A DNA stretch of 64,000 nt from Patescibacteria group bacterium (GTDB lineage: Bacteria > Patescibacteriota > Patescibacteriia > JAXHNJ01): assembly GCA_043812155.1 (NCBI GenBank), contig JBDRMK010000017.1, positions 77,824 to 141,823 on the forward strand, in the 5' to 3' direction. How positions within the stretch are numbered: position 1 is the stretch's first letter; every line of letters starts with the position of its first letter. Shown here one piece after another: positions 1 to 63,531 of this stretch. A program made the translations under genes and the position numbers. The notes beneath the pieces are model-generated. The model was not told the DNA's origin, searched no databases, and worked only from the letters and a program-made list of their open reading frames with translations.

Positions 1-148
1 CATCCGAGCCTGAATTATTATTTTCGTTCAAGACCCCCTGGTTATTATTGGCATTAACCGATTCACTGGGCCAGAAATAAAAATAGTAAACCGCCGCTCC
101 GCCTAAAAGAACGATCAGCGTCAGGGAAAGAATAATTATTTTTTTCAT
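1..148 (-). CDS. Partial CDS, N-terminal part of a membrane-anchored protein; the gene continues beyond the window start.
   Basis: ATG at 146-148 on the minus strand gives MKKIIILSLTLIVLLGGAAVYYF, a hydrophobic signal/TM segment. The frame is open to the window edge. Confidence 0.4.
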   Translation of the reverse strand, partial: MKKIIILSLTLIVLLGGAAVYYFYFWPSESVNANNNQGVLNENNNSGSD

Positions 149-183
149 ATAGTTTTATAATAGCTTATAAATATACAAGGTAT

Positions 184-2166
184 TTAGCCTAGCCCTTCCG
201 AGTCGCGGGTAATATTCAATTCGTCTTTTTGGCGGGGCTGAACATTTCGGCCGACTTTTTCCTCCGGCCCTGTCTGGCTTTCTTCGGCCGCGCCTGCCTC
301 ACCGCCCAGCTGACGTTCAAATTCCTTTTTCGCCGCTTCAATTTCCAGCAGCTGCCGGGGGTCGGAAGTGATAAGCTGGTCTTCGGTATAAGAAGCGACG
401 ACTTTAATGGCCGCGTGGCGGGTGCCGGCGAAAAATATCCCTTCGCCGACGCCGCATTCCAAAAGCAAATAGCGCTCTCCCTGGGTTAAAAGAAATGTTT
501 TGGCGATAATATCAATGCCGGCCGGAGATTGCTTCATCAAAAGCTGCAGGGCGGAGTTATTGACGATCGCCTGGCCGTAAGGTGAGCGCAAGAAATCATT
601 GACATCCTGAGTGATAGTAGTAACCCCGAGATAATATTTGCGGCAGCGCTTGACCAAAGCGTAAATAAATTTGGCGGAATCCTCGTTCTGCATCAGCCAC
701 CAGGCCTCGTCGATCACCAGCACTCTTTTTTTCATCTTGGAGCGCACCACGTTCCAGATATAAGAAACGATCATGGAAATGCCGATGGCCCGCAGCTCAT
801 CTTCTAAGTCTCTGACGGAAAAAACCACCAGCTGATTATTCACTTCCACATTGGTCGGGCTGTTAAAAAGTCCGGAAAACGTTCCTTCAGTGTATTTTTT
901 CAATCTTTCGGTCAGTTCTTCGGCCCCGACCATCCCTTCCAGAACATCCTGAAGGTCTTTCATTAAAGGCGGCTCAATTTTTGAAAGATCAGAATCAGGG
1001 GTAATATCCTTATTGGAGTAAGTCTCCAAAAGGGCCCGGTCAATGATAGAATCCTCCTCATGGGTCAGTTCGCCCAGCATCAGACGAAGCAAGGATTTTA
1101 AGGTAATGACGGCCGAACGGATAATATCAGCCGTTTTCTCCCCTCCGTAAACCGCTTTAGGCAGATCGAACGGATTGATGCGGCTTTCGGAATTCAGGGA
1201 AATATTAATGTAGGTGCCGCCGACCGCGTCGCAAAGATATTTATACTCCATTTCCGGGTCAACGATGATCACGTCGGTGCCGAACATCAGGCTGCGCAGG
1301 ACTTCCAGTTTCACGGCGTAGCTTTTCCCCGAGCCGGAAACGGCGAAAACATTCAAATTGGCGTTTTCCAGGGAAAAACGGTCAAAAAGGATAAGGCTGT
1401 TGTTATGCCGGTTAATGCCGTAAAGGATGCCGTTGTCCGAAGATAGGTCCGCGGAAATAAAAGGGAAAGAAGAGGCGCAAGGCGAGGAATTCATATTAAA
1501 AGTGACTTGCAATTCATCCAAGCCTAAAGGCAGAGTGGAATTGAAACCCTGCTCCGCCTGAAAAAGAACCCTCTTTGTGTAAATAAGAGTGGAGCCGAAG
1601 ATTGATTCTATTTTTTCAGTCAGGCGGTCCAATTCATCTTTCTTATCGGCGTAAAGAGTGAGGTAAAGGGCGAATTGGAAAAATTTTTCCGTGCCTTGGG
1701 TCAGATCATCCCTCAGTTTTTCAATATCTTTTAAGGCGGTTTCCCGCATCGGGTCCCGCGGCGCGCCTTTTTCCGCGTCGGACAAAATCTGCGCTTCAAT
1801 GGCGCCGACCCGGTTTTTCAGTTGTTTTAATATCAGTTTTGATTCCACCGGGTAAAAAAACATGGCCACGTCCAAAGCGACATTAAGATTGATAATGGGC
1901 GAGAACCAGCCGACGGAGATATAGCGAGGGTAAGTGACGACAAAAAGAGTCCTGACGAATTTGCCGCCCAAATTAATGTAATCCCTTTCAATATTAATCG
2001 CGGCCGGGGCAATCAGGTCCCGCACCGAAATAGTGCCTTTGCGGTAAATTCTTTCCGCCTCAATGATCTCGCGAGCCACATCCGCTTTTATGGGTTTTTT
2101 TTCGGGCGCCGAGACCGGCGTTCTGGCCGCTATGATTTTTCCTTTGGATAAATTTATATCGGGCAT
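184..2166 (-). CDS. virB4: VirB4/TrbE/CagE-family type IV secretion (conjugation-type) ATPase.
   Basis: Walker A FAVSGSGKSY and Walker B VLVIDEAWWLM. N-terminal region (GTISVRDLIAPAAINIERDYINLGGKFVRTLFVVTYP) is typical of Gram-positive-type VirB4. Likely start is MPDINL at 2166, not the upstream ATG at 2259, because the upstream gene stops at 2174. Confidence 0.8.
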   Translation of the reverse strand: MPDINLSKGKIIAARTPVSAPEKKPIKADVAREIIEAERIYRKGTISVRDLIAPAAINIERDYINLGGKFVRTLFVVTYPRYISVGWFSPIINLNVALDVAMFFYPVESKLILKQLKNRVGAIEAQILSDAEKGAPRDPMRETALKDIEKLRDDLTQGTEKFFQFALYLTLYADKKDELDRLTEKIESIFGSTLIYTKRVLFQAEQGFNSTLPLGLDELQVTFNMNSSPCASSFPFISADLSSDNGILYGINRHNNSLILFDRFSLENANLNVFAVSGSGKSYAVKLEVLRSLMFGTDVIIVDPEMEYKYLCDAVGGTYINISLNSESRINPFDLPKAVYGGEKTADIIRSAVITLKSLLRLMLGELTHEEDSIIDRALLETYSNKDITPDSDLSKIEPPLMKDLQDVLEGMVGAEELTERLKKYTEGTFSGLFNSPTNVEVNNQLVVFSVRDLEDELRAIGISMIVSYIWNVVRSKMKKRVLVIDEAWWLMQNEDSAKFIYALVKRCRKYYLGVTTITQDVNDFLRSPYGQAIVNNSALQLLMKQSPAGIDIIAKTFLLTQGERYLLLECGVGEGIFFAGTRHAAIKVVASYTEDQLITSDPRQLLEIEAAKKEFERQLGGEAGAAEESQTGPEEKVGRNVQPRQKDELNITRDSEGLG

Positions 2167-2173
2167 AATAATT

Positions 2174-2848
2174 TTATTCTTCCAAATTAATTTTATTGAT
2201 GTCAACCATTTTTTCCTGGTTATAGGATTCCGGATTATAAGTGTTATAAAACAATTCAATCAGGCTTTGCGTGTCCAAGATTTCGGATCTCAAACCGATA
2301 GAAGAAAGGGCATCCCTCACGTAATCCACCCGTTTGAATATTTCTTCTTTGTATTTCTCAAATTTTTGCTTTTTTAAATGAATGGCCGTGGTCGGCGATA
2401 TTGATTCCACGATCCGGCTGATAAATTTTTTTGGCTTGTCGCCCCGGCCGGAATAGGGAATCGCCGCGTAAAATCTTTTACTCATGATATCAGCCATTTG
2501 GATCAATTCAGCGATATATTGGCGGTATTCAGTCGTCTGCATCCGCAATAATTCATTGGTCTGCTCCTTTTCTATTTTTTTAAGCTGCTCAAGATAGGCG
2601 TCAATATTCAATTTACGCGACTGGATGACGATCTGCAGATTAAAATCAAGGGAATTAATGAATTGGATATAACCCTGAATAACCGCTTCCTGCTCTTCCT
2701 GTGATTTCAAGGAAAAATTTATTGAGGAGACCAAGAGAACGGCCCGGATCGATCCGTCTTTAAGCACGATGCAATTATCCTTGATTTCCAAGATATCAAG
2801 GTATTTTTGGGTGGCCACCGCTTTAGAAGCCGTTCTTATTTTTGGCAT
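2174..2848 (-). CDS. Hypothetical protein, co-directional with and immediately upstream of virB4; possible T4SS accessory protein.
   Basis: 224-aa ORF, 7-bp gap to virB4, no recognisable motif. Role inferred from context only. Confidence 0.45.
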   Translation of the reverse strand: MPKIRTASKAVATQKYLDILEIKDNCIVLKDGSIRAVLLVSSINFSLKSQEEQEAVIQGYIQFINSLDFNLQIVIQSRKLNIDAYLEQLKKIEKEQTNELLRMQTTEYRQYIAELIQMADIMSKRFYAAIPYSGRGDKPKKFISRIVESISPTTAIHLKKQKFEKYKEEIFKRVDYVRDALSSIGLRSEILDTQSLIELFYNTYNPESYNQEKMVDINKINLEE

Positions 2849-2860
2849 GAAATTGTATAA

Positions 2861-3310
2861 TTATTTTTTATTTTGTTCCGATAATTCGTCTTCCTGGTAG
2901 GCGCCGCCGGTATCAACAATCAGGGATACTTGGGTCAGTTTTGAAGCAGAAAGAGGTTTTTTATGCGGGATGATCACGGGGGCGCGGGGCTTTTCTTCCT
3001 TGTATTTAAAATCACTTTTGGTGAACGATTTGCTCCAAACCCGCAGACGCGGCTCTTTCATCGTATTAAATAAATTCAGGAGAAAATAATGGAAAGGGCG
3101 GCCATTCAGGCGCAGAAAAGCGAAAAGTCCGGAAATCCCGAAAAGGAGGACGGCGATAACGGCAAAAAGGAAAAAATTTATGCTGAAAAAAATCTGATAA
3201 TCAAGGTAGATTAAAACTCCCGCCACTAAAAGCGTGACGAACTGGCGGACTGAAATCGGCCCGATAATTTTGCTTTCAATGTCGATAAATTGCGGAACTG
3301 TAAATTGCAT
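2861..3310 (-). CDS. Small polytopic membrane protein in the position VirB3 occupies (upstream of VirB4).
   Basis: 149 aa with two to three hydrophobic helices (LLVAGVLIYLDYQIFFSINFFLFAVIAVLLFGISGLFAF). Gene-order inference only. Confidence 0.4.
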   Translation of the reverse strand: MQFTVPQFIDIESKIIGPISVRQFVTLLVAGVLIYLDYQIFFSINFFLFAVIAVLLFGISGLFAFLRLNGRPFHYFLLNLFNTMKEPRLRVWSKSFTKSDFKYKEEKPRAPVIIPHKKPLSASKLTQVSLIVDTGGAYQEDELSEQNKK

Positions 3311-3318
3311 CGTGTTTA

Positions 3319-5004
3319 TTAAAATCTTAATTCTTTATTCAAATCAGCCAGATCGCTGAATTCTTTTTCCGTCAGATATGGCTGGCCGGAAGCCGTTCTT
3401 TCTTCCACCACTTCTCGGATAGTTCTGGCTCTTTCCATGCTTTGCCGGCCCATTTCCAGGTACAATTGATAAACCTCCGATTCCCGCCAGGCTTTTACCC
3501 CGGCCGCGAAACGCGTAAATGAATCTTCTTTCAAAAGATTGATCTTATCGTAAACTTTCCGCACGGCGCTTACCCGATCACTGCCGATACGCCTGAAATC
3601 ATTTAAACTTAACATTCTTAATTCTTCAACCGGCCCGGAAATTTTGGCTTTGCCCTTAATATCCTCGAGTCTTGGTTTTTGCGAAATAACAGAAGGCCGC
3701 TGAATATTTATGGGCGTAGATATATTTTCTCTCTCATTTTTCTGCTCTGCTTCTTCGCGCAATTTACTAAGGGCTTTTTCAAACAGAACCTGAGCTTGGG
3801 TCTTGACCGGCTCAGCGAGCGCCTCTTTAATAGGGGAGATTTTTTCTTCATCTGACATTTCTTTTGTATCTTGGGTTGATTCTGGTTCTTCCGGAACTGG
3901 TTTAAAAATTTTTTCCTTTTCTAAAGTGGCGGCTAAGGCTTCTTTAGGCGTCGGGACAGGAATTTTTGGCCGAGCCTCCCCCTGGGGCTTTAAAGCATGC
4001 AGACGCGGAATTTCATTCCTTAGATCTGTGATAATATTTTCCGCCTGGTCTTCCGGATATTCCAAGCCGCCGATCTTTGACGAGCGGGTCAATAAGTCAA
4101 AAGTGTCGCTTTCCGTTCGGATTTCTTTAAGCCTTGAGCCGGCGATGGAAAAAAAACGCTTTTTTAAAATATCATCCTCAAAAACTAGATTATATTTTGA
4201 AATAATTTGATTTATTACTTCGTCAACGCTTAAAGTGTCCGAAAGCGGAAAAGAGGAAAGGTTTTTTTCATGATTTTTTATTTCTTCATCGTCTTCAGGA
4301 TCTAAATAAGAATTGGCTGTTGATTTCTCGCTCGGCTCCAAACTTACCGTTTTCAACTGATTTTTTACTTCTTCGGTAACGGGCGACAGTTCAACTTCTT
4401 TCGTTTCTTCCACTGGTTTTTCTGTTTTGGCCGGCGGTAAATCTTTTCGCTCCGGCGGCAGAGAAGGGATAGGCGGAGGAATATTTTTTTCTTCTTTAAC
4501 AGACGGCCGGGCCGGCGAAAATTCCTCTAATTTTCCCTGCTTCATGATTTTTAACCGGCCGTCTTTGTCCTTTATCACGATTGTTTCCAGGCTGGCCGGT
4601 TTTTCCGCCACTTCATTAATAAATTCGTATATTCCAAAAATATTTTTTAATAGGATCAGCGTTTTTTCCGGGATATTCTGATTTCTTAAAGAACTGAGAT
4701 AATCCTCAGTTTTATTGATTTTCCCGGCGGAAAAATCAATAAAATCTTTCAGCCAATTGGAAATCAAAGGCGGCATTCTTAAGCCTTTATTCGTCACCAT
4801 GAACGCGCCCAGGGATTGATTATTGGTTTTCAAGGCGGCGGTTATTTTTTGCGCCAATATTTTCCGTGAAGCCAAAGGCAAGCTTAAAAACTTCAGGCGC
4901 AAATTTTTCAAAGTTTCCGGATAAGAAAGAAGACCGGGCAAATTTCGGCTTACCTCGTTTAATAGCTCTTCATCGGTCATTAATTGTAAGGACTGGCCCT
5001 CCAT
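3319..5004 (-). CDS. Hypothetical protein, 561 aa, with Pro/Glu/Lys-rich linker regions.
   Basis: Long ORF with no TM segments and low-complexity PPPIPSLPPERKDLPPAKTEKP stretches. No recognisable catalytic motif. Confidence 0.5.
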   Translation of the reverse strand: MEGQSLQLMTDEELLNEVSRNLPGLLSYPETLKNLRLKFLSLPLASRKILAQKITAALKTNNQSLGAFMVTNKGLRMPPLISNWLKDFIDFSAGKINKTEDYLSSLRNQNIPEKTLILLKNIFGIYEFINEVAEKPASLETIVIKDKDGRLKIMKQGKLEEFSPARPSVKEEKNIPPPIPSLPPERKDLPPAKTEKPVEETKEVELSPVTEEVKNQLKTVSLEPSEKSTANSYLDPEDDEEIKNHEKNLSSFPLSDTLSVDEVINQIISKYNLVFEDDILKKRFFSIAGSRLKEIRTESDTFDLLTRSSKIGGLEYPEDQAENIITDLRNEIPRLHALKPQGEARPKIPVPTPKEALAATLEKEKIFKPVPEEPESTQDTKEMSDEEKISPIKEALAEPVKTQAQVLFEKALSKLREEAEQKNERENISTPINIQRPSVISQKPRLEDIKGKAKISGPVEELRMLSLNDFRRIGSDRVSAVRKVYDKINLLKEDSFTRFAAGVKAWRESEVYQLYLEMGRQSMERARTIREVVEERTASGQPYLTEKEFSDLADLNKELRF

Positions 5005-5007
5005 AGT

Positions 5008-5949
5008 TTATAAAGTAGTTATCGGTCTTGATTGAGTGATATAAAATTTATTTTTGTGCAATGCCCATTCAATATCCTGCGGATGATGGTAATGCTTTTC
5101 AATAAGTTTGCAGATTTTCGCCAGTTCGACAATTTGCCGGCCGGCCAATTTCTGCTGATGGCCTTTTTTGCCCTTAATTTTTATTTTTACCGTACCGCTC
5201 TTTTTCTTCCGGATAATTTTTTCATTCTGCTCGGCCACGTTAATATCCACCAGATAATTATCTTTTTTATCAATTACATATGTGTCCGGCGTCACCTGGC
5301 CGGAAACAATCGCCTCCCCTTGGCCCAAGACCGCTTCAATAACCATCTGATTTTTGTCTTTGGAAACCGGATGCACAGTGAAAGCCACGCCGGAAACTTC
5401 TGAATCAATCATCTTCTGAATAACCACGGCCACCGCCACCTTCTGCTTATGCAATTTCTTTTCATAACGGTAGAAAATGGCCCGGGGCGTGAACATGGAA
5501 GACCAGCATTTTTTCACGGCCGCCAAAAGATTTGGCTGATTGACAAATAAATAAGATTCCAGCTCTCCGGCCCAGGAAGCGATTTTAGAATCCTCGGCCG
5601 TGGCGCTTGATCTTACCGCCACATAAGGTGATTTTAATTTTTTAAAGGCCGCCAAAATCGGTTTTTTAAGATCCTCGGGCATTTTTTTCTTGGCAGAAAC
5701 AGCCCGGATCTCATTGGAGGCGCGGTCAACCGAATTTACATCCTTATAATTGACATTGGAAATACGAGCCTCAATTTCAATATCCAAATCGCTTTCGGCT
5801 AAGAATTTATCAAAGGCGGAAGCCAAAATAACGAAACCGTCAGGCACAGGGAAACCGTGAGCGGCCATTTCTCCCAGAGAAGCGCCTTTGCCGCCGGCTT
5901 CTTTGACATTTTTTTTGCTTATTTTGGCAAAAGGGATGACAAAATTCAT
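5008..5949 (-). CDS. Stand-alone PEP-utilising enzyme N-terminal (pyruvate phosphate dikinase / PEP synthase PEP/pyruvate-binding, ATP-grasp) domain protein.
   Basis: GGKGASLGEM motif and the general pattern of the PPDK/PpsA N-terminal nucleotide-binding domain. No phosphohistidine or TIM-barrel domains follow. Start probably at MNFVIPFAK. Confidence 0.65.
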   Translation of the reverse strand: MNFVIPFAKISKKNVKEAGGKGASLGEMAAHGFPVPDGFVILASAFDKFLAESDLDIEIEARISNVNYKDVNSVDRASNEIRAVSAKKKMPEDLKKPILAAFKKLKSPYVAVRSSATAEDSKIASWAGELESYLFVNQPNLLAAVKKCWSSMFTPRAIFYRYEKKLHKQKVAVAVVIQKMIDSEVSGVAFTVHPVSKDKNQMVIEAVLGQGEAIVSGQVTPDTYVIDKKDNYLVDINVAEQNEKIIRKKKSGTVKIKIKGKKGHQQKLAGRQIVELAKICKLIEKHYHHPQDIEWALHKNKFYITQSRPITTL

Positions 5950-6050
5950 ATAAATTTGCCTTATTATTATGCCATAACTTTGAAGTTTTAACAAATATCA
6001 ATTTATTCAAAAAAAGAAGCACAAAATCATTTATATGCCCATAAATTGAA

Positions 6051-6848
6051 CTAATAAAGTCTAATATTTAGTACTTTCGGTATTTCCTCTATCAAATCAC
6101 CGGCGTTATAATAGACGCCGACCTTTTTATACAAATTATCACCGGCCAGACCGTTTATCAAGACTCCTACCTGGCCGGCCAAAAATAAATCGTTTTTACA
6201 GGCCAAGGCCGCCACAAGACCGGATAAGACATCGCCCGTCCCGCCTTTGGTCATGCCTTCATTGCCTGTCGTATTTATAAAACATTCTTTAAGCGAGCAG
6301 ACATAATCATTTTTACCTTTCAAAACTATATAACAGCAGCAATTTTTTGCCATCCTGGCGCAATTTTCCGGGCTGGCTTTGATACCGAATAATTTTTCAA
6401 ATTCGCCAGGGTGAGGGGTGACTAAACAATTTGTATTCAATAATTTTTTATCTGCCATTTTTAAGGCGTCGGCGTCCAACACGAATTTTTTGTCTTTATA
6501 ATTTATCAATAATGAATTGAGTGCTTTTTTATTTTCTGACGACACGCCCCAACCCGGACCGATCAAAATTACGTCTGATTTTTTTACCGTATCATTTAAT
6601 TCATTGCTATTAATCGTGATAAAGGCCGGGCTATTCTTTTTAATTTCCCGCATTAATTTCATACTACCTGAGACTGAATAGAAATATATCAGATCGACTA
6701 TTTTAGAAGCGATTTCAATCGCGTACCACGGGGCTCCATGATATTTTTCTGACCCGGCGATAATCAATAAAACGCCGTTTTCGCCTTTGCGGGAATTTTT
6801 CGGCGGGTGGTATAAATGTTTTAAAATTGATCGGGTGATTTTTTTCAT
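6051..6848 (-). CDS. nnrD: ADP/ATP-dependent NAD(P)H-hydrate dehydratase (YjeF C-terminal / carbohydrate-kinase-like family).
   Basis: KGENGVLLIIAGSEKYHGAPWYA N-terminal motif and GTGDVLSGLVAALA C-terminal motif. Confidence 0.75.
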   Translation of the reverse strand: MKKITRSILKHLYHPPKNSRKGENGVLLIIAGSEKYHGAPWYAIEIASKIVDLIYFYSVSGSMKLMREIKKNSPAFITINSNELNDTVKKSDVILIGPGWGVSSENKKALNSLLINYKDKKFVLDADALKMADKKLLNTNCLVTPHPGEFEKLFGIKASPENCARMAKNCCCYIVLKGKNDYVCSLKECFINTTGNEGMTKGGTGDVLSGLVAALACKNDLFLAGQVGVLINGLAGDNLYKKVGVYYNAGDLIEEIPKVLNIRLY

Positions 6849-7013
6849 AAATTTACACGTGTCGAGCGGGGGCTCGACAGGTACCCGGAAAAAAGGAGTT
6901 TGTTGAGCGAGGGCTTGACACTACCCTAGAGGGTAAACGTGTGATAAGCGACGGCTCGATAATATTTTCTTCTTTCTGGCGGGTAGGTCGGAGCCCCTGC
7001 TCCGACCTTTCGC
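6849..7013. repeat. Cluster of REP-like palindromic elements downstream of the RAYT gene.
   Basis: Hairpins gtcgagc-ggggg-ctcgac and ggtcggagc-ccct-gctccgacc. A GGGTAGG (GTAG-containing) head is shared with two intragenic copies. Direct repeats acgtgtcgagcgg / acgtgtgataagcgacgg. Confidence 0.5.
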
Positions 7014-7709
7014 TCATAATTCATCAATTTTTATCAAAGCATGATCATTAAATTCATAATTTCGGTACGACGACCACGGGTAATCTTCAGGATTCTTAAC
7101 CAGTTTAGCTTTGACGGGATTATGATGGATGTAATACAATTTTTGCTCCAATTTCTTTTCGGAGTAAATATTGAAATCGTAAAAATCTGGCATCCATATT
7201 GAATATTTTCTTGTTTTTTCTTTATTTTCCCTCGGGTAGGCCGAATCCTCGGATTTGGCAGAAAGACGTGTCCGATCTAAGGATCGAACTTTACCCGTTA
7301 GCGGGTAGGCCGAATCCTTGGATTCGGCCGGAAGGCAGGCCCGATCTGAGGATCGGACGGTACCCAACGTAGCGGGATAATCAAAAATTTTTCCCGTTAC
7401 AGAAAACTTCTTGAGTAAATCGGTCTTTTTATCCTTTAATAATTGCTGTACTATCTGTATGCTTGAAAATTTTTTAAAATCCCGCATTACTCTGGAAATA
7501 TCATTGTATTTATCATTTAACTGAATTAATAGATGGACATGGTTCGGCATAATGACAAAACCAAGCAACTTATAGGAAAATTTATTGCAATAGAATATTA
7601 GATTGTCAATGATAATACGGCATAATTTATCCTCTTGAAAAAGCGCTATTTTGTTAAAAGTGTGAACGGTAACAAAATGAACCGTATTTTCAATATTGTA
7701 TTTCTTCAT
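7014..7709 (-). CDS. REP-associated tyrosine transposase (RAYT, IS200/IS605 TnpA-like Y1 transposase) with an in-frame insertion of two REP-like units.
   Basis: HUH motif MPNHVHLL and C-terminal DYPWSSYRNY catalytic Tyr region. The central segment RSSDRACLPAESKDSAYPLTGKV / RSLDRTRLSAKSEDSAYP is encoded by tandem GGGTAGGCCGAATCC hairpin repeats. Confidence 0.75.
   Translation of the reverse strand: MKKYNIENTVHFVTVHTFNKIALFQEDKLCRIIIDNLIFYCNKFSYKLLGFVIMPNHVHLLIQLNDKYNDISRVMRDFKKFSSIQIVQQLLKDKKTDLLKKFSVTGKIFDYPATLGTVRSSDRACLPAESKDSAYPLTGKVRSLDRTRLSAKSEDSAYPRENKEKTRKYSIWMPDFYDFNIYSEKKLEQKLYYIHHNPVKAKLVKNPEDYPWSSYRNYEFNDHALIKIDEL
7200..7385. repeat. Two tandem REP-like hairpin units (GGGTAGGCCGAATCC(T/C)(C/T)GGATT(T/C)GGC followed by CCGATCT(A/G)AGGATCG) embedded in frame in the RAYT coding sequence.
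   Basis: Direct reading of two near-identical ~70-bp units, each with two short hairpins. They share the GCGGGTAGG head with the element at 6978-7000. Confidence 0.55.
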
Positions 7710-8011
7710 GGCAAACTCATGATGATTTGCTGTATCCGCTCCGCCTCTTGCCTAACTATCTCCGTGTCGTATTCCCCGGCGTGCATGCTTGTCCCCGAAT
7801 AAGAGGGCCTCTTGGCGTCAAAATGCAAATTCAAGATCAGCTCTTCGCGGCTGTCCTTATTAACATAAATGTGAAATTTGGGAAATTCGCTTCGACCGGC
7901 CCGGCGGGCAAAACCCGGCTCGCCTTTATTGTCGCCGGAATAATGATAGCCACATTTGCGCAAAAGCGTTAAAGTATTTTCGGAAAAATTTTTCGCGATT
8001 ATAAGCCTCAT
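7706..8011 (-). CDS. Hypothetical protein, 101 aa, translationally coupled to the RAYT gene.
   Basis: 4-bp ATGA overlap with the RAYT gene. No recognisable motif. Confidence 0.4.
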   Translation of the reverse strand: MRLIIAKNFSENTLTLLRKCGYHYSGDNKGEPGFARRAGRSEFPKFHIYVNKDSREELILNLHFDAKRPSYSGTSMHAGEYDTEIVRQEAERIQQIIMSLP

Positions 8012-8233: not shown

Positions 8234-9682
8234 TTACTCCATCACCAAACTTCCGTCATCATTAAGGTTCACCATCGCCCATTCAACCTGGCTGGTACCG
8301 ATATTATAATAGACCAAGCCAAGGTATGAATCCTGCTTTAAAGCGCGGAAAATATTTTCCAGTTGCCAGGCGACATAGGCCGATTGATCTCCTTCCGGCA
8401 GAATCCGGCTAAGCACGAATTTTAGGAATATTTTCAAGTATATGGAGTCTTCTTTGTTTTGGCGGAAATTATCGGCTAAAACCTTGGGATCAACGCCGGG
8501 CTTTTGTTTTATTAGAATTGGGAATATTTCTTTTTCAAAAATTTCCTGGACAAAAGGGTCTGAAATGATATTTTTCAATTCCCCTGTCCGGGCCAGAATA
8601 ATAAGGCAGGCGGCGGCGACATTCGGCTCTTTATCGCGGTAAGCGTCAAAAAAATAATTTTTCAGCTTTTCAAACTCGCCTTTTGAAGCGCTAACAATAT
8701 TACTTTCTTCGGCGCTAATTTGCTTTAAAAGAGGTTCGTTTTCCGCCGCTGTTTTATTAAGCTTTTCCCGAATAGAGTCCGTTTCCGAGAGTTTATCTTC
8801 TTTTACTCCTTCTTCTTCTTTAACGGTAGGCTTAGTAGATACGGGAGTAGGAGTAAAAGAAGATAATGATTCCTCTTTTTGGCCGCCGAGGTTAAGTGAG
8901 GCTAAAGCTTTTTCCCTAACGGCTATAATAGTATTAATTTTATTCTCGTCAAATTTCAACGGCTGGAAGACGCCGCCGATAATATTACCCTGATGTCCTT
9001 CATCGTCTATGGGAATAGCCTCCTCCAATCCTTCAAGCGTCAAAGAAGAAAGTTTTAATTTTTCATAAAATTTAATTACCTGCTCAACTTTCTTTTTGTC
9101 TTCCGGCGGCAGACTCTTAGTGTTCGTATCGGTAAAAAGATATTCCGTCACTTTGATCAAGGAAATAACTTCGTTGCCCAAAATTGACCGATAGGCAAGA
9201 ATCCAGTTACCGACCGTGGGGGGCAAAAGACGGCCATTGACTTCAATGTCTTTTTGGGTGAGTTTTTCGGCATTTCTCTCTAAAGCCTCTTTGACTCTTT
9301 TTTTAAATTCATCGCGTATATCCAATGGGAAAATAAACAATAGGCGGGCACGGAAACTATCTTCTAAATAATAATCAGACATGGAAAAAATCGCCGTCAG
9401 ATGCTTTCCAAACATTTCCACCACGTCATCTTCTTTTAGGAGACTTAAGGCGACCCAAGAAGCCCGGACGATCATTTCCCGCACTTTCTCGTAAATATCC
9501 GGGTAATCCAAGACAAACGACGGGTAATCTTTAAAAGCCTGGGTAAGATTGGCGGCAAACAGAAGCGCGTCTTCGGTCTGGCTAAAAGTAATAATCTCCT
9601 CAAGCTTCCGGGCAAGTTTCTGCGAGAAAGCTGGAACCGTTAGTTTTTCGACGATTAATTTGGTGTCCGCGTTGATAATCAT
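8234..9682 (-). CDS. Hypothetical protein, 482 aa, last gene of the giant-protein operon.
   Basis: 4-bp overlap with the upstream membrane-protein gene. No recognisable motif. Confidence 0.5.
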   Translation of the reverse strand: MIINADTKLIVEKLTVPAFSQKLARKLEEIITFSQTEDALLFAANLTQAFKDYPSFVLDYPDIYEKVREMIVRASWVALSLLKEDDVVEMFGKHLTAIFSMSDYYLEDSFRARLLFIFPLDIRDEFKKRVKEALERNAEKLTQKDIEVNGRLLPPTVGNWILAYRSILGNEVISLIKVTEYLFTDTNTKSLPPEDKKKVEQVIKFYEKLKLSSLTLEGLEEAIPIDDEGHQGNIIGGVFQPLKFDENKINTIIAVREKALASLNLGGQKEESLSSFTPTPVSTKPTVKEEEGVKEDKLSETDSIREKLNKTAAENEPLLKQISAEESNIVSASKGEFEKLKNYFFDAYRDKEPNVAAACLIILARTGELKNIISDPFVQEIFEKEIFPILIKQKPGVDPKVLADNFRQNKEDSIYLKIFLKFVLSRILPEGDQSAYVAWQLENIFRALKQDSYLGLVYYNIGTSQVEWAMVNLNDDGSLVME

Positions 9683-31293: not shown

Positions 31294-31935
31294 TTATTTT
31301 TCCGCCTGAATAAACCAACGGCCATAATTACCCATTTTTATTTTCACTTTTTTAAATTTTAAAAAAAATCTTGCGATCTCTTTTTTAGTGAAAAAACTGT
31401 GCGGCAATCCTTTTTCCGGACCGGTTAAAGGAATATAGGTACCGGCGGACACCATTCGCTTTTTTTGAAAATGGTGCCACTCATTTATTTGCTGACAATC
31501 CGGCAAGGTAATCAGAGTTTTTCCGTTATTCCGTAAAGCCCGGAATATTCTATTTACTAATTTTCTAATTTGCGCTTTTTTGCCGTGCTGGAGAGTGTTA
31601 AACGAAAAAATAAAATCATATTTACCCGGCGGAATTTTATACTTAAACATATCGGCCTTTATTATCCTGGATTTATCCTTCAATAATTTTTTAGTCATTT
31701 TTACCGCCGATAGACTGGAGTCAATCCCGTCGGTTGCAAAGCCCAATGTTTGCAGATATTTGAGGTATCTTCCGTCACCACAGCCGATGTCCAAAGCGGA
31801 TTTTGAAGTAAATTTTGACCGTTTAATAAATTTTTTAAATGGCGGGTATATTTCGTAGCCGAGAGAAGCATAGGCCGGCCCGCCTTTCAAATAATTTTTA
31901 TAAATCTTATCCCAAGTGGTCAAATTAAACGACAA
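31294..31935 (-). CDS. Class I SAM-dependent methyltransferase.
   Basis: ALDIGCGDGRY motif I. Confidence 0.65.
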   Translation of the reverse strand: MSFNLTTWDKIYKNYLKGGPAYASLGYEIYPPFKKFIKRSKFTSKSALDIGCGDGRYLKYLQTLGFATDGIDSSLSAVKMTKKLLKDKSRIIKADMFKYKIPPGKYDFIFSFNTLQHGKKAQIRKLVNRIFRALRNNGKTLITLPDCQQINEWHHFQKKRMVSAGTYIPLTGPEKGLPHSFFTKKEIARFFLKFKKVKIKMGNYGRWFIQAEK

Positions 31936-34633
31936 AATTAATTAATCTGCCTTTAACAAATATTACTTTCTTTGGCTCGCCTATAACGTACTTTCTCACT
32001 TTTTCAGAACTTAAAGCTTTTTCCTTTGCTTCACTTTCCGAAATATCCGCCGGTAATCTTAAACGCTCGCGCAGTTTGCCATTTACCTGGATGATAAATT
32101 CCACTTCTTCGTCTTTAACTAGTTTGGAGTCATAAGAAGGCCATTTTTCCTTGAAAATAGATTCTTTATGCCCTAATTTCTCCCAAAGTTCCTCGGCCAA
32201 ATGCGGGGCAAAAGGCGATAATAACTTACAATAAATTTCCCGTTCATCTTTTTTTGAACTATTTTCTTCAATATTACCAAGATTTATATAAATATTTATC
32301 AATTTCATTAAAGCTGAAACAGCCGTATTAAAGTGCAGATTATCAATATCTTCTGTTACTTTTTTAACCGTTTTGTTTAAGCCATATTTTTTTGTTTCTA
32401 AATCTTGAGTACCAAAATTCGTCTGGAAATGTTTTTGTATCCTATCTAAAAATCTTTTCATTCCTCTTAAACCGTCTGTGTTCCAGTTGATCGCCTGGTC
32501 AAACGGCCCCATGAACATTTCGTAAAGCCGGACGGCGTCCGCCCCGAATTCCTTGATAATGACATCGGGATTGACCACGTTGCCGAATGATTTGGACATT
32601 TTCCGGCCGTCTTCGGCCAAGACCATGCCATGAGAAACCCGACGTTTATATGGTTCATCAGTCGGCACTAATTTCAAATCATATAAGGCTTTGTACCAAA
32701 ATCTTGAATACAATAGATGTAGAGTCGTGTGTTCCATCCCGCCGTTGTACAAATCCACCGGCAACCAGTGCTTCATATTTTTCATGTCCGCGAATTTCTT
32801 GTCATTATGCGGATCGCAATAGCGGATGAAATACCAGTTTGAACCGGCCCAGTTAGGCATGGTATCAGTCTCTCTTTTCGCCTGGCCGCCGCACTTCGGG
32901 CATTTCACATTCACCCATTCGGTAATTTTCGCTAGTGGCGATTCGCCTGTATTCGTCGGCTCATATTCTTTGACTTCGGGTAATTCCACCGGCAGATCTT
33001 TTTCCGGCACCGGCACGACTCCGCATTTTTCGCAATGGATCAAGGGAATCGGCTCGCCCCAGTAATGCTGACGAGAAAAAATCCAGTCGCGGAGCTTGTA
33101 ATTGACGGCGGCTTTGGCCAAAGAAAAAGATTGGTTCGGAAAAAATGGCAGGATCTCCGGCAAAACAGTGATATTCCCGTTCGATTTGCTAAAGTGATGT
33201 TTGCCAGAAAAAAGATGAAATTCCGCTTCAGGCAAATTCTTTTTATAGTATTCTACGCTTTCGACGGGAATAAATGGATCATTATCCGAAAACATGATAA
33301 TAAATCGCTCCGCCAAAGCGCGTATTTTTTTCCAATTAAAAAGTCCTGATTCATTCATGGCCTCAACCGCTTTCCAGTCAGCCGTCGGATGCGAGTGTCT
33401 TAATTCCGTCCACTTCTGCCAGGGATTTGTCGGCGCCACTAATATTACGGTATGAACATTTTTACCTAATAATTGCAGATGATACAACATGGCAGGGCAA
33501 CCAAGACTATGACCTACTAATACCGATTGTTCGTTAATCTGCTCGTCAAACCGAGCCAATTGTTCGTTCCAAACGGCCATCGTGGGATGATCAGTATCGG
33601 ACAAAGAAGGTACTATTACCTCCCATCCCTTCTGACCAAGTTCTTTTTTCAACCAGGGAAACCAATTTTCTTTTTCATGCCCGCCAATACCATGAACAAC
33701 AAGACAGGTTTTAGTTTTCTGGCCGTCGGTTGAATTCAAATCTTTGATAATAATTTCTTTAAACTTAACTGAATCCATGCCATTATACTTACCGGAATTA
33801 ATCATTATCCCATCGCCGGCGTAAATTTTTCCTCTAATAAATTTGTCAAAAACATAATGATGCAATGGATCTTTTACTTTTTGATCCGCTTCTTTTTCGC
33901 TCAGCCATATAACTTTAAATTTTTCATTATCTTTTCGGTCAGTTATTCCTTTTTCTTCATCCATAAGTTCAAAATAAAGCCCCACCACCTCAATTTCCCG
34001 ATCTACATTTTTAGAGTGGGCCGTATAATGATGGTGGATTTTTTCTGACTGGGCAATAAATTTTAAATTTTTATAACCCGTTTCTTCTTTAATTTCACGT
34101 TTTGCACAAGCAACAGGATCTTCTCCTTTTTCCAAACCGCCACCAATAAGCAGATAACCCCCAAGCCCAGAGCCCCAATTTAGGGCTAAAATCCGGCCAT
34201 TTTTGGGATTTTTCACCAGAGCGACGATACTGCGGCGAAATTCTTCATTCTTCTTCGGAGTTCCGGTAACCGGCTCAATGACGTTAATTACCGGCAAATC
34301 GTATTTTTTCGCAAATTCAAAATCCCTTTCATCGTGCCCCGGCACCGCCATTATGGCGCCGGTGCCATAACCCGATAAAACATAATCCGCGACAAAAATG
34401 GGAATTTCTTCATTATTCACGGGATTAATAGCTTTGATTCCTTTTAATTCCACTCCAGTTTTTTCTTTTGATTCGGCGCGCTCTAAATCCGATTTCGCTT
34501 TGGCTTTTTTAATATATCCTTCCACCTCCTGGCGATTAGCGATTTGCGGCAAGAAATCGGCGATCAATTCATGCTCCGGCGACAAAACCATGTAAGTCAC
34601 GCCGTAGAGAGTGTCAGGTCTTGTTGTAAAAAC
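31925..34633 (-). CDS. leuS: Leucyl-tRNA synthetase, C-terminal 900 aa, with NUDIX and YdeN-type serine-hydrolase domains inserted in the CP1 region.
   Basis: YGTGAIMAVPGHDERDFEFA, NYKLRDWIFSRQHYWGEPIP and KMSKS motifs. The frame extends upstream of the annotated GTG (34600) to include VFTTRPDTLYGVTYMVLSPEH. Inserted NUDIX box GGGLEKGEDPVACAKREIKEETGY. Inserted hydrolase motifs VHGIGG, LVGHSLGC, FSDNDP and GKHHF. Confidence 0.85.
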   Translation of the reverse strand, partial: VFTTRPDTLYGVTYMVLSPEHELIADFLPQIANRQEVEGYIKKAKAKSDLERAESKEKTGVELKGIKAINPVNNEEIPIFVADYVLSGYGTGAIMAVPGHDERDFEFAKKYDLPVINVIEPVTGTPKKNEEFRRSIVALVKNPKNGRILALNWGSGLGGYLLIGGGLEKGEDPVACAKREIKEETGYKNLKFIAQSEKIHHHYTAHSKNVDREIEVVGLYFELMDEEKGITDRKDNEKFKVIWLSEKEADQKVKDPLHHYVFDKFIRGKIYAGDGIMINSGKYNGMDSVKFKEIIIKDLNSTDGQKTKTCLVVHGIGGHEKENWFPWLKKELGQKGWEVIVPSLSDTDHPTMAVWNEQLARFDEQINEQSVLVGHSLGCPAMLYHLQLLGKNVHTVILVAPTNPWQKWTELRHSHPTADWKAVEAMNESGLFNWKKIRALAERFIIMFSDNDPFIPVESVEYYKKNLPEAEFHLFSGKHHFSKSNGNITVLPEILPFFPNQSFSLAKAAVNYKLRDWIFSRQHYWGEPIPLIHCEKCGVVPVPEKDLPVELPEVKEYEPTNTGESPLAKITEWVNVKCPKCGGQAKRETDTMPNWAGSNWYFIRYCDPHNDKKFADMKNMKHWLPVDLYNGGMEHTTLHLLYSRFWYKALYDLKLVPTDEPYKRRVSHGMVLAEDGRKMSKSFGNVVNPDVIIKEFGADAVRLYEMFMGPFDQAINWNTDGLRGMKRFLDRIQKHFQTNFGTQDLETKKYGLNKTVKKVTEDIDNLHFNTAVSALMKLINIYINLGNIEENSSKKDEREIYCKLLSPFAPHLAEELWEKLGHKESIFKEKWPSYDSKLVKDEEVEFIIQVNGKLRERLRLPADISESEAKEKALSSEKVRKYVIGEPKKVIFVKGRLINFVV

Positions 34634-34634
34634 T

Positions 34635-35369
34635 TCAATGTGTGGTTTCGAATTTATAATTTCGGATTTCTAATTTTATATTAGCGCCCTCCGACCTTCC
34701 AATCCAGTCAATCTGCTGCTTTTTTATTTTTTCCAAAAAATCAACCTTATCCAAATCTTTGATTAAGCGGTCAGCATATTCAGTAATTTTAAAAAGCCAC
34801 TGCTTTTGATTTTTCTTGGTCACTTCTGCCCCGCATCTTTCGCACTTGCCCCCGACCACTTCTTCATTGGCTAAACCGATCTTGCAGGCTGGACACCAAT
34901 TGATCGGCATTTCTTTCTGGTAAACCAAACCGGCTTTGTATAATTGCAAGAATATCCACTGCGTCCATTTGTAATATTTCGGGTCGGAAGTATCAATCGC
35001 TCTTTCCCAGTCAAAAGAAAAACCCATCGCTTTCAACTGGCGGGTGAAATTGGCAATATTCTCCCGGGTTATATCTTGCGGTTTTCTTTTGACCTTTATG
35101 GCGTAATTTTCCGTGGGCAAACCGAAAGAATCAAAACCGATGGGGAATAAAACGTTTTCCCCTTCCATTCTTTTTTTTCGGGCCATAATATCAATTGCCG
35201 TGTAGGAACGAAGATGCCCCACATGAAGACCGTCGCCGGAAACATAGGGGAATTCTATCAGGCAATAATACTTATTCAGGGATTTATCATTGGCTAAAAA
35301 TAATTTTTGCTTTTGCCAAAAATCCTGCCATTTTTTTTCAATTTTACCCGGGCTAAAACCGTCGTTCAT
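34635..35369 (-). CDS. leuS: Leucyl-tRNA synthetase, N-terminal 244-aa catalytic portion, separated from the rest by an apparent frameshift.
   Basis: HIGH motif (HVGHLRSY), zinc-binding CPAC...CERCG, and [10 protein letters not shown] immediately before the expected editing domain. A TGA stop at 34635-34637 interrupts the frame. Confidence 0.8.
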
Positions 35370-49581: not shown

Positions 49582-50319
49582 ATGCAAGAGGAAATAAAAA
49601 ACTTGATGGCGGATTTCATTAAAGCCAAAAAACAGGAAGTTAATTCGGCCACCCTCAATAATTACAGATTTTATCTTAACCGTTTTTTTTATCTTTTAAA
49701 CTTGTCAGGGCCGGAAGAACTTAATTATCAAACCGTCAGGGCTTTTCGGGGAAAATTAAATCAGCTAAAATTAAGCCCCGCCACGCAGAACTACCACCTG
49801 ATCGCCCTGCGATCATTCTTAAAGTTTTTAAACGAAGAAAACATCAACAACCTTGATCCAAAAAAAATAACTCTATATCCGGTGAAGATTTCCAAAAATG
49901 AGCCCGTGACAAAAAAAGAAATAGAAAAAATAATGGAAACACCGGACAAAGATGATGTTTCAAAAATTATCAACAAAAGGGACAAGCTCCTCCTGGAACT
50001 GCTTTTTTCCTCACAGTATAAAGTGTCAAAAATTGCCAAGTTGAAAATAAAGGAAGTCTCCGGTTTAAAAATTGGCGAGCAGGGAAAATACTGGCTAAAA
50101 TTGTATTTAAAATCCAGAAAGGATAAAAGCGAATTTCTTTTTATCCGCCATGACCGAGCTCAACCAAAAGCCATGCGCCATAAGCCATACGCCATAAGCC
50201 CTCTGACGGCACGCTCCATCCAAAGAATCGTCGCTTCTTGCGCCAAGAAAGCCGGCATTAGGAAAAAAATCACGCCGGAAAGCTTCAGAAATATTGCGAT
50301 AAATTATTTTTTTACTTAA
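49582..50319 (+). CDS. Tyrosine recombinase (XerC/XerD/phage-integrase-like) that is C-terminally degenerate; it lacks the catalytic RHR-Y region.
   Basis: The N-terminal SAM-like core-binding domain is recognisable (YRFYLNRFF...LSPATQNYHLIALRSFLKFL). The C-terminus ends ITPESFRNIAINYFFT with no HxxR or catalytic Tyr. Confidence 0.55.
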   Translation: MQEEIKNLMADFIKAKKQEVNSATLNNYRFYLNRFFYLLNLSGPEELNYQTVRAFRGKLNQLKLSPATQNYHLIALRSFLKFLNEENINNLDPKKITLYPVKISKNEPVTKKEIEKIMETPDKDDVSKIINKRDKLLLELLFSSQYKVSKIAKLKIKEVSGLKIGEQGKYWLKLYLKSRKDKSEFLFIRHDRAQPKAMRHKPYAISPLTARSIQRIVASCAKKAGIRKKITPESFRNIAINYFFT

Positions 50320-51584: not shown

Positions 51585-51656
51585 AGCCCCTGTAGTTCAA
51601 CGGATAGAACAACAGCCTTCTAAGCTGTGGATACAGGTTCAATTCCTGTCGGGGGT
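51585..51656 (+). tRNA. tRNA-Arg (anticodon TCT).
   Basis: Hand-folded cloverleaf: acceptor GCCCCTG / CGGGGGT with two G-U pairs; D-arm GTTC-AACGGATA-GAAC; anticodon arm ACAGC-CTTCTAA-GCTGT; T-arm ACAGG-TTCAATT-CCTGT; discriminator A. Confidence 0.75.
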
Positions 51657-51788
51657 AAATAACGAAATAATCATGGTGCCTGTGGTGTAGTGGTTCGCAC
51701 ACGACTCTGCCCGCCCCGCTCGCCAAAGACAAATTAAAATATTATTTCTATTATATAAATTAAAAACTTAATTGAAGGGTTGCAGAAG

Positions 51789-51861
51789 GGTGACTATAGT
51801 GTAGTAGTTAGCACAGAGCCCTGTGGAGGCTTTAGCGAGGGTGCAAATCCCTCTAGTCACC
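51789..51861 (+). tRNA. tRNA-His (anticodon GTG) with an encoded G-1 paired to discriminator C73.
   Basis: Acceptor GTGACTA / TAGTCAC plus G-1:C73; D-arm GTGT-AGTAGTTA-GCAC; anticodon arm GAGCC-CTGTGGA-GGCTT; T-arm GAGGG-TGCAAAT-CCCTC. Confidence 0.75.
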
Positions 51862-51976
51862 CTTCTGCATCTCTAACATTTCTATGGCTCGCTTTGGCGG
51901 GCCGGGGTGGCAAGGGTTCTGCGCCAAAGGCGCATCAGCCTCTGGCTGAAATTCCCATCAGTTCCCCACCAAAAAT

Positions 51977-62601: not shown

Positions 62602-63531
62602 ATGCCTGGAAAAGAATCACTCGAGGGAAGAGAAATTCCGCCTGATTTATCGGCTTTGGATTTAAACAGTCTGCAAAAAGAGGCGGAAGAATATAATCAC
62701 CGTTTTAACGCCGGAACTATGATGGCCGATATGCTTAAAGCACACGTACGAAATGAAGAGCTACCGCCACAGAAGGCAACAGACCGTGAACCACCCTTGG
62801 AAAGAATAAAACTTCAATACGCCGATCTTATTGGCCGCACCGGCATCAGCTTGGAAACAATAGGCACTAACCGTATCTTTGGGGCGGACGGAGAAAGACA
62901 GGCTTCCGAACTTCGTTTTAATCTGTCTGACCGAAACAAATTTATTGAATACTTAAAGTCAATCCCGCCGGAAAATCTCAGCCCTTCGCAGGCTGAAGGG
63001 TTAAAAACCGTGGCCGAAAGCCTGACCACCCAACTCGCCCAAGAATACCAAGTGACAAATCCCAAAGACGAAAGAATGATTGAACTTTTAGGCGGACTAA
63101 AAGAGATGAACCAAGCTTACGACCGTCTTGATCCGGAAAAACAAAACGGCTTGAGCCGGGCGGTGGAACGACTAAAAAAATATGACCGGGCGTCTCAAGG
63201 CAAACACTTGAAGGAATATATCGCCGTGGAAAAAGCCGGCCTGATGGCCGAGGTAGGCGGCCGTAATTTCGGCCCGAGCCAATGGCATACCGATGCCACG
63301 CCGGAATTTTACGAAGAACATTGGCAACAGGCCTTAGAGATATTAAAAAGCCTGGGCGATAATCCGCAGGCCCAAAACTTACAAGACCAAGTCCGGGAAA
63401 ATTTAAAAGCCTCTCTGGCCCATGCGAGAGAGAATTTGGAACGGAATGAAGAATCACATCTGGCTAATAGCAGAGAAGCTTTTTTTCTGCAAGTAATCTC
63501 TCGGGCGGAAAAAGAATTAGCAAAAATATAA
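62602..63531 (+). CDS. Hypothetical protein, 309 aa, helical and charged.
   Basis: ORF only. Confidence 0.45.
   Translation: MPGKESLEGREIPPDLSALDLNSLQKEAEEYNHRFNAGTMMADMLKAHVRNEELPPQKATDREPPLERIKLQYADLIGRTGISLETIGTNRIFGADGERQASELRFNLSDRNKFIEYLKSIPPENLSPSQAEGLKTVAESLTTQLAQEYQVTNPKDERMIELLGGLKEMNQAYDRLDPEKQNGLSRAVERLKKYDRASQGKHLKEYIAVEKAGLMAEVGGRNFGPSQWHTDATPEFYEEHWQQALEILKSLGDNPQAQNLQDQVRENLKASLAHARENLERNEESHLANSREAFFLQVISRAEKELAKI

Follow-up and report, generated by a model that had tools for sequence, protein, structure and literature searches.

A probable chromosomal Patescibacteria-type type IV secretion gene cluster with a VirB4 ATPase encoded in two parts

The type IV secretion systems (T4SS) of the Patescibacteria have been described in papers from 2023 to 2025. 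The text of the survey by Quinonero-Coronel et al. (2025) covers 3,035 Patescibacteria genomes, reports VirB4 in 2,417 assemblies and places nearly all of these VirB4 in one clade nested within the mating-pair-formation class FATA (MPF-FATA) (PMC12102498). According to that text, TrsD is the most abundant component, and VirB3/PrgI, VirB6 and VirB2-like pilins, including those with PF18895, are found near virB4. VirB8 is rarely detected, almost solely in class ABY1; relaxases are almost absent and type IV coupling protein (T4CP) genes are rarely near virB4; ksgA is near the T4SS in many classes, as are comF, recG and radA in class ABY1 (PMC12102498, main text). Wang et al. (2023) found T4SS genes, including a pilin array, to be essential for epibiotic growth of Southlakia epibionticum, the T4SS of which is without coupling and relaxase proteins (PMC10633639). 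A 2025 review (PMC12857230) and a perspective (PMC11665869) treat the role of the T4SS as open, discussing both effector export and nucleotide acquisition. The gene cluster presented here surrounds a virB4 gene in a stretch of 64,000 nucleotides, referred to as the window, from a Patescibacteria group bacterium (assembly GCA_043812155.1, contig JBDRMK010000017.1, positions 77,824 to 141,823); its features are listed in Table 1 by window position. It is very probably the central part of a chromosomal T4SS of the Patescibacteria type, with machinery of the monoderm, MPF-FATA-like kind. This system is already known, and the window is another instance of it, not a new kind.

At the start of the window the genes for a 561-aa protein, a PrgI-like protein, a 224-aa protein and VirB4 follow one another on the minus strand in this transcription order, with spacings of 8, 12 and 7 nt. 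This is the co-directional arrangement claimed in an earlier note made from the letters alone, and the identification of the ATPase as VirB4 in that note is upheld. The translation contains the Walker A motif AVSGSGKSY and the Walker B motif VLVIDEAWW, which include the GSGKSY and VIDEAWW first pointed out. Against the NCBIfam model NF045971 (VirB4-like conjugal transfer ATPase, CD1110 family) the protein scores 362.7 bits (cut-off 325, E 3.8e-108), spanning positions 180-729 of 752. It matches Pfam P-loop_TraG with an E of 6e-29 (101 bits), the HerA/DUF87 Pfam match being far weaker at 30 bits. The PDB sequences matched are 4AG5, a VirB4 C-terminal domain (E 2.8e-49), and TrwK of R388 (E 6e-9), with no other PDB families among them. 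An FtsK or HerA identity, named in the note as the finding that would overturn its reading, is ruled out by the NF045971 score above cut-off and by PDB matches to VirB4 proteins only. The start is taken as the ATG at 2166, giving 660 aa and the same MPDINLSK beginning as in the gene of the closest relative, locus L081; the mechanical open reading frame (ORF) reaches back to a TTG at 2259, overlapping the end of the 224-aa gene. Judged by its sequence, the 660-aa protein is a true VirB4, for which ATP hydrolysis and hexamer assembly are predicted, and it appears to comprise the C-terminal part of the VirB4 N-domain together with the P-loop ATPase domain.

At least 429 relatives were confirmed, of which 80 loci were kept and examined by tblastn of the window proteins; the conservation counts below refer to these. 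The named relatives are metagenome-assembled genomes (MAGs) of Kerfeldbacteria, Falkowbacteria and Parcubacteria, lineages which we take to belong to GTDB class ABY1, and the rest of the kept loci resemble Patescibacteria MAGs. VirB4 identity to the Patescibacteria MAG proteins is 71-81%, the best relative by VirB4 among the kept loci being a Kerfeldbacteria MAG at 81%. The best plasmid VirB4s, of the CD1110 family from Bacillota and Actinomycetota plasmids, are 29-35% identical. The 561-aa, PrgI-like, 224-aa and VirB4 genes have the same order and direction in 77-80 of the 80 loci, a linkage far beyond chance, so that the conserved neighbourhood proposed for checking in the note is borne out. 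In 77 of the 80 loci the next gene upstream of the PrgI-like gene is the 561-aa gene, and in 78 the next gene upstream of the 224-aa gene is the PrgI-like gene. The whole conserved co-directional order is 1527-1054-482-(101)-(PPDK_N)-561-PrgI-224-VirB4-194, where numbers are protein lengths and the bracketed genes are present only sometimes. The numbers of loci with tblastn matches are 77 for the 561-aa protein, 78 for the PrgI-like protein, 79 for the 224-aa protein, 41 for the 1054-aa protein, 27 for the 482-aa protein and 25 for the 1527-aa protein; the lower counts of the last three arise partly because many loci end short upstream. Many of the relatives (L002, L008, L009, L017, L018, L020, L027 and others) are titled 'uncultured Gammaproteobacteria bacterium' in third-party annotation (TPA) assemblies. 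Their VirB4s have 72-78% identity and their gene order is that of the Kerfeldbacteria and Falkowbacteria MAGs; these titles look like mislabels.

The 224-aa protein, given as of unknown function in the earlier note, matches the N-terminal positions of VirB4 models. On NF045975 (894 positions) it covers 101-289 (E 2e-9) and the 660-aa protein 285-892. On NF045971 the two cover 18-111 (E 2.4e-4) and 180-729, and on phrog_2666 they cover 4-93 (E 1.4e-8) and 131-364. There are more than 5,000 homologues of the 224-aa protein, the closest at 94% identity. The 120 best-scoring of these are all stand-alone proteins of about 220-250 aa with precomputed Pfam PF26593 (TraC-like) matches, and one homologue is named 'TraC family protein' by NCBI. 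The AF2 model of the protein, built from 79 sequences, has a predicted local distance difference test (pLDDT) value of 74 and a predicted TM-score (pTM) of 0.62. Structure prediction had been put forward as a check, and in a Foldseek search of PDB with this model the 12 top matches are all TrwK/VirB4 of R388, with a probability of up to 0.99. The 224-aa protein is thus predicted to be the N-terminal part of VirB4, encoded as a gene of its own and TrsD/TraC-like. It also matches 345 plasmids, 282 of them from Bacillus.

The small membrane protein that the note placed in the VirB3 position, 149 aa in length, matches Pfam PF12666 (PrgI) with 29.4 bits against a gathering score of 27. Two neighbouring hydrophobic helices, at about aa 22-41 and aa 44-66, give it a hairpin; these and the other transmembrane and hydrophobic segments reported here come from a simple hydropathy scan rather than a topology predictor. 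On this evidence the 149-aa protein is, by prediction, the VirB3 equivalent. The earlier statement that the accessory proteins have no recognisable homologues therefore holds for the 561-aa protein and fails for those of 149 and 224 aa. Further upstream is a 1054-aa protein with several hydrophobic segments within aa 11-357, a conserved block at aa 87-273 and a long, charged, coiled-coil C-terminal tail. Its gene is found upstream, in the same order, in 41 of the 80 loci. The profile searches suggested in the note matched TrbL/VirB6 (PF04610) in 5 of 39 family members (best E 1e-6), and the protein is therefore read as a putative extended VirB6-like protein. The L001 homologue matches TrbL/VirB6 with an E of 0.0057, below the gathering score.

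The note had also seen a membrane protein gene starting just downstream of virB4 at the window edge. This gene begins with the ATG at 146 (MKKIIILSLTLIVLLGGAAVYYFYFW...), 37 nt past the VirB4 stop, and runs off the window start. Its family, represented by the 194-aa gene of L081, is directly downstream of virB4 in 74 of 81 loci. Its members have a single transmembrane helix at the N-terminus, joined by an Asn-rich linker to a conserved C-terminal domain, which is about 120 aa long. NTF2_YvbJ matches are weak and limited to 3 of 72 members (best 4e-5), and the family profile searched against PDB and Pfam gave transmembrane or low-complexity matches only, with no VirB8 or PDB match. From its place the 194-aa protein is a VirB8-position candidate.

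The window ends 183 nt after virB4, and the sequence past the window start is read from relatives L001 and L081. Downstream in relatives are an acidic transmembrane protein and PF18895 T4SS_pilin-domain proteins, and L001 also has a protein with both pilin and SLT domains. DsbA, RadA, a DksA/TraR zinc finger protein and RecG follow in relatives. In the 43 loci whose downstream sequence extends for 8 kb or more, RadA is co-directionally present in 31 and RecG in 36, and both are present in L081. The earlier suggestion of a minimal T4SS-like apparatus of the kind seen in episymbiotic bacteria is therefore only half right. The kind has been reported (PMC12102498, in its main text, and PMC10633639). 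The system is not minimal: upstream, in conserved order, are genes for the VirB6-like protein, for a putative paralogue of the 561-aa protein and for giant surface proteins, and relatives encode an SLT lytic transglycosylase and pilin-domain proteins just past the window start.

The note's statement that no relaxase, coupling protein or pilin is visible in the window stands. None was found by Pfam among 45 scanned ORFs of the 64 kb, whether as a relaxase, a VirD4/TcpA-type coupling protein or a pilin domain. The scanned ORFs are the long gene-like ones, most of at least 120 aa; those shorter than 120 aa are covered within 1-12000 only, and the last kilobases of the window are represented by a 309-aa ORF at 62602..63531 alone, which has no match.

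Compared with the Patescibacteria-clade T4SS as described in the text of the survey (PMC12102498) and with the S. epibionticum genes SEML1_0006-0019 (PMC10633639), the locus has a VirB4 nearest to Patescibacteria MAG proteins, a TrsD-like gene beside virB4, PrgI/VirB3-like and VirB6-like genes nearby and, in L001 and L081 only, PF18895 pilin-domain genes. Like the described systems it is chromosomal, with no relaxase or T4CP near, with ksgA near and with recG and radA downstream as in ABY1 (PMC12102498, main text). Against that text there is no essential difference, the inserted IS200-like, Carb_kinase and PPDK_N genes being local details. As the window locus fits the published description in every tested respect, it is seen as an instance of the system already described. 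The 561-, 482- and 194-aa families and the coupled giant surface proteins are not named in the text of the survey, as distinct from its supplementary tables (PMC12102498).

Three other systems share the separate or matching VirB4 arrangement. The staphylococcal conjugative plasmids pGO1 and pSK41 (MPF-FATA subclass) have, as TrsD and TrsE, a stand-alone VirB4-N-related gene directly upstream of VirB4. Unlike the system described here, plasmids of this type have a relaxase and the coupling protein TrsK and are without VirB2-like pilins (PMC12102498, main text). In Pontibacillus sp. (NZ_CP062975.1, L082) the core order is as in the window: a pilin-like protein, a 779 aa VirB6-like protein (weak TrbL match), a 116 aa VirB3-like protein (weak TraL/PrgI match), a 274 aa stand-alone VirB4-N-like protein, a CD1110-family VirB4 (35% identity) and a cell-wall endopeptidase. 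The 274-aa protein is 27% identical to the 224-aa protein (E 8e-30). In contrast to the window, the VirB6-like and VirB3-like genes of L082 have no genes for 561- or 482-type proteins between them, and no giant surface-protein genes are attached. This core is at 351801-361354 on an 898-kb 'non-mobilizable' megaplasmid, beside flagellar genes; its pilin-like protein is of the Mbov_0395 family, its peptidoglycan endopeptidase is 1,050 aa long, and no relaxase is annotated within 9 kb. It may be another non-conjugative use of this machinery in a monoderm. The VirB4 of the Mycoplasma integrative and conjugative element (ICE) belongs to the Mbov_0397 family (NF045975), a model that the 224-aa and 660-aa proteins jointly cover end to end. 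The Mycoplasma VirB4 is a single polypeptide. The two window proteins score 35.8 and 278 bits, below the family cut-off of 590.

Several points weigh against the reading of the locus as a Patescibacteria T4SS. The pilin, SLT and 194-aa genes of this genome are taken from relatives, the window ending 183 nt after virB4. The membership of its VirB4 in the Patescibacteria clade is read from 71-81% identity, not from a tree. The 1054-aa window protein itself has no TrbL/VirB6 Pfam match, such matches being found in some homologues only. The TrsD/TraD model NF041427 matches the 224-aa protein with an E of 1.2e-5 and 25.2 bits (cut-off 200), and the protein is therefore regarded as a remote relative, outside the staphylococcal TrsD subfamily proper. 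The Foldseek matches of the 224-aa model have weak E values of 0.013-0.16 and query-normalised TM-scores of about 0.3-0.4. What the 561-, 482- and 194-aa proteins are proposed to do is guesswork. Essentiality is known from a Saccharibacterium, which belongs to a different class from the window lineage (PMC10633639).

By analogy with VirB3, VirB4, VirB6 and VirB8 in solved T4SS (R388 and the Gram-positive literature), the VirB3-like protein and the detached N-domain, which is supplied in trans, would serve to dock the VirB4 hexamer on the cytoplasmic membrane. The hexamer could then energise assembly of a channel from the VirB6-like protein and the bitopic 194-aa protein and drive the polymerisation of VirB2-like pilins, while the giant surface proteins would bind or hold the host cell. 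The role is most likely epibiotic host interaction and not conjugation, the machine serving in protein export or as a pilus-based conduit.

It is unlikely that the machine is instead an importer of host DNA or RNA for nucleotide supply or recombination. The archaeal Ced and Helicobacter ComB systems are T4SS-derived uptake systems and are models for such an importer. A machine of this kind would agree with the scanned window ORFs, in which no relaxase or coupling protein is found nearby, and with the RadA and RecG genes that follow the cluster in 31 and 36 of the 43 loci. The VirB4 also has a weak match to CedB (E 2e-10), yet its 39.8 bits are far under the cut-off of 700, the best models are conjugative VirB4 families, and no CedA-like or ComB-specific component was found. 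A T4SS has been proposed as a candidate route of nucleotide acquisition (PMC11665869), and comF, recG and radA adjoin the T4SS in class ABY1 according to the main text of the survey (PMC12102498), but the adjacency of radA and recG is possibly a mere conserved chromosomal neighbourhood. Import stays alive because RadA and RecG adjoin the cluster in this lineage. A host-interaction role through export or pilus contact is favoured over nucleic-acid import.

That the genes are the mating-pair-formation module of an ICE or of a plasmid fragment, transferring DNA between cells, is very improbable. The closest annotated relatives outside the Patescibacteria are the CD1110 VirB4s of Bacillota and Actinomycetota plasmids at 29-35% identity, an IS200-like transposase gene lies within the cluster and a truncated tyrosine recombinase gene is present in the window, but the recombinase is 45 kb off and neither a relaxase nor a T4CP is found in the scanned ORFs of the 64 kb. 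Housekeeping genes flank the cluster and are interleaved with it, and the same gene order across the examined species representatives, from at least 429 confirmed relatives, amounts to conservation at class level. In the main text of the survey, relaxases are reported in 103 of 3,035 Patescibacteria genomes and are rarely near virB4 (PMC12102498). The cluster is a vertically inherited chromosomal system and not an ICE. It is scarcely conceivable that the split of VirB4 comes from a frameshift that made it a pseudogene, or from a fault in the assembly, in a decaying module, as might be thought from the different frames of the 224-aa and 660-aa ORFs and from the overlap of the TTG-2259 ORF with the 224-aa gene, because 79 of 79 loci have an ORF for each of the two parts, with each of the three relative frames represented (14, 30 and 35 loci) and with varied spacing, stand-alone homologues of like length to the 224-aa protein (about 225-240 aa) exceed 5,000, a stand-alone N-part with virB4 is also found on Bacillota plasmids, and identity to the closest relatives is high (94% for the 224-aa protein and 81% for VirB4).

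The 561-aa protein was described in the earlier note as Pro-rich. Overall its Pro content is only 7.0%, with 15.8% in the linker at aa 161-255 and 10.9% in the linker at aa 338-456, so that the description applies to the linkers. In the AF2 model these disordered Pro- and charge-rich linkers separate three helical modules (aa 1-160, 257-336 and 458-561), with a mean pLDDT of 63 and about 90 in the middle module. The model is from an alignment of 8 sequences, and a homologue search with the C-terminal 122 aa alone returned nothing. In the family the middle (about aa 257-336) and C-terminal (about aa 441-561) modules are well conserved, the latter with an LN..LRF C-terminus; variation is greater in the N-terminal module, and conservation is poor in the linkers. 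No transmembrane segment was found by the hydropathy scan, and there is no match in Pfam, NCBIfam or PHROG. When a 68-sequence profile of the family was searched against Pfam and the sequences of PDB, all matches were of low complexity or chance matches of single members, and tblastn against 72,556 plasmids gave no match. Structure prediction, informative for the 224-aa protein, yielded no Foldseek match in PDB better than E 1.5 here; CagZ was considered as a fold match and rejected, its E of 3-6 being noise. The family has 2,360 cluster representatives at E<=1e-10.

The 482-aa cytoplasmic protein is encoded between the VirB6-like and 561-aa genes in 27-34 loci. By BLASTP, aa 5-85 of the 561-aa protein match aa 78-161 of the 482-aa protein (E 5e-5), and the latter may be a distant relative of the N-terminal part of the former. 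In some relatives (L040:5967-8186, L067:5959-8025, also L017, L021 and L030) the 482- and 561-aa queries fall in a single ORF, 580-740 aa long, which points to paralogy between the two or to the existence of fused or merged versions. Both are cytoplasmic, have their genes between those for the VirB6-like and VirB3-like proteins and lack a counterpart in the one Bacillota relative examined. The best guess is that they are cytoplasmic parts specific to the lineage, with a role in scaffolding or substrate recruitment. The stronger proposal, that they are Patescibacteria-specific T4SS subunits replacing the coupling protein as substrate receptor or scaffold, draws on their lack of a Pfam, PDB or plasmid match and on their recurrence at this place in almost all of the related loci examined, but is distinctly doubtful.

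The genes upstream of the one for the VirB6-like protein encode three giant proteins with signal or anchor N-termini and with fn3, purple-acid-phosphatase-N-like, BNR/Ycf48-like, Big_7 and CBM_4_9 domains. These genes are tightly packed, with junctions of 0 nt and 13 nt and then a 4-nt overlap with the start of the VirB6-like gene, and in 25 of the 80 loci the VirB6-like gene directly follows one for a homologue of the 1527-aa protein. The giant proteins are probable adhesins. No PrgB-type adhesins were detected in Patescibacteria according to the main text of the survey (PMC12102498), and for this reason the giant proteins may be the functional adhesins.

In this genome the IS200-like, Carb_kinase and PPDK_N genes split the VirB6-482-101 block from the 561-PrgI-224-VirB4 block. 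The 328-aa PPDK_N protein corresponds to the ATP-grasp nucleotide-binding domain of phosphoenolpyruvate (PEP) synthase/pyruvate phosphate dikinase, without the phosphohistidine or PEP-utilising domains. Its gene ends 3 nt before the 561-aa gene and adjoins that gene in 21 of the 80 loci, not in L081; it is probably an operon passenger rather than a part of the T4SS. The 101-aa gene is found at a like position in 9-10 loci and in L081, and its product has no family match in the Pfam scan. Within the IS200-like gene there is a 69-nt tandem repeat at 7233..7365 (1.9 copies, 81% match), which duplicates a GxVRSxDRxxLxAxSxDSAYP peptide inside the protein. L081 is without an IS200-like gene at the matching position.

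Table 1. Features of the T4SS gene cluster, by window position
Feature	Position	Strand	Evidence or remark
Bitopic membrane protein (VirB8-position candidate), first 49 codons	1..146	minus	N-terminus matches 194-aa gene after virB4 in L081
VirB4 ATPase (by sequence), 660 aa	184..2166	minus	NF045971, P-loop_TraG, PDB 4AG5
Predicted TrsD/TraC-like VirB4 N-part, 224 aa	2174..2848	minus	VirB4-model N-terminal matches
PrgI/VirB3-like protein, 149 aa	2861..3310	minus	Pfam PF12666
561-aa protein	3319..5004	minus	ORF coordinates
Stand-alone PPDK_N protein, 328 aa	5008..5994	minus	Pfam PPDK_N E 3.8e-97
IS200-like Y1 transposase	7014..7709	minus	Pfam Y1_Tnp E 2e-9; start overlaps 101-aa gene end
Conserved small protein, 101 aa	7706..8011	minus	between 482 and 561 genes
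482-aa cytoplasmic protein	8234..9682	minus	start overlaps VirB6-like gene stop by 4 nt
VirB6-like polytopic membrane protein, 1054 aa	9679..12843	minus	hydropathy, family Pfam matches
Three giant secreted/surface proteins, 1917, 1087, 1527 aa	12840..26454	minus	Pfam domains, N-terminal hydrophobic segments

The other genes of the window encode KsgA, Sua5, a major facilitator superfamily (MFS) transporter, leucyl-tRNA synthetase (LeuRS), a ComM-like Mg-chelatase, LspA, PNPase, PurL and two tRNAs. The truncated recombinase gene, of the tyrosine recombinase/phage-integrase family, encodes 245 aa at 49582..50319, about 1.3 kb from tRNA-Arg(TCT) and tRNA-His(GTG) (51586..51862), and may mark the remnant of an integrated element. 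LeuRS appears to be split between two adjacent minus-strand ORFs (31925..35369). The one at 35369..34635 (244 aa) has the N-terminal catalytic half, and the one at 34600..31925 (891 aa) has the editing domain, a NUDIX domain (aa 122-245) and a serine/alpha-beta hydrolase domain (aa 300-475), followed by the C-terminal catalytic half and the anticodon-binding domain. A split LeuRS bearing such insertions is unusual. Promoter and terminator counts in the window are at the level found after shuffling (28 versus 22.7 and 21 versus 19.4), and for this reason no operon boundaries can be drawn.

The T4SS of the Patescibacteria is nearly universal in a huge and mostly uncultured radiation. It is the sole monoderm-type T4SS with VirB2-like pilins, and the single species tested cannot grow epibiotically without it. 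The gain from the window is that the parts of the Kerfeldbacteria/Falkowbacteria-type locus can be listed more cleanly: a VirB4 that appears to be split, a bitopic protein in the candidate VirB8 position after virB4, giant surface-protein genes packed against the VirB6-like gene, and two apparently related helical proteins of 561 and 482 aa. The 561 family, with its 482-aa relative, is widespread and tied to the cluster, and there is a small chance of novelty in it. As families without a known counterpart, the two are clear targets for interaction and structural work. Should they prove to be a substrate receptor, the only T4SS known to be indispensable to the cell that carries it would either select its substrates without a T4CP or work in an import mode tied to RadA and RecG.

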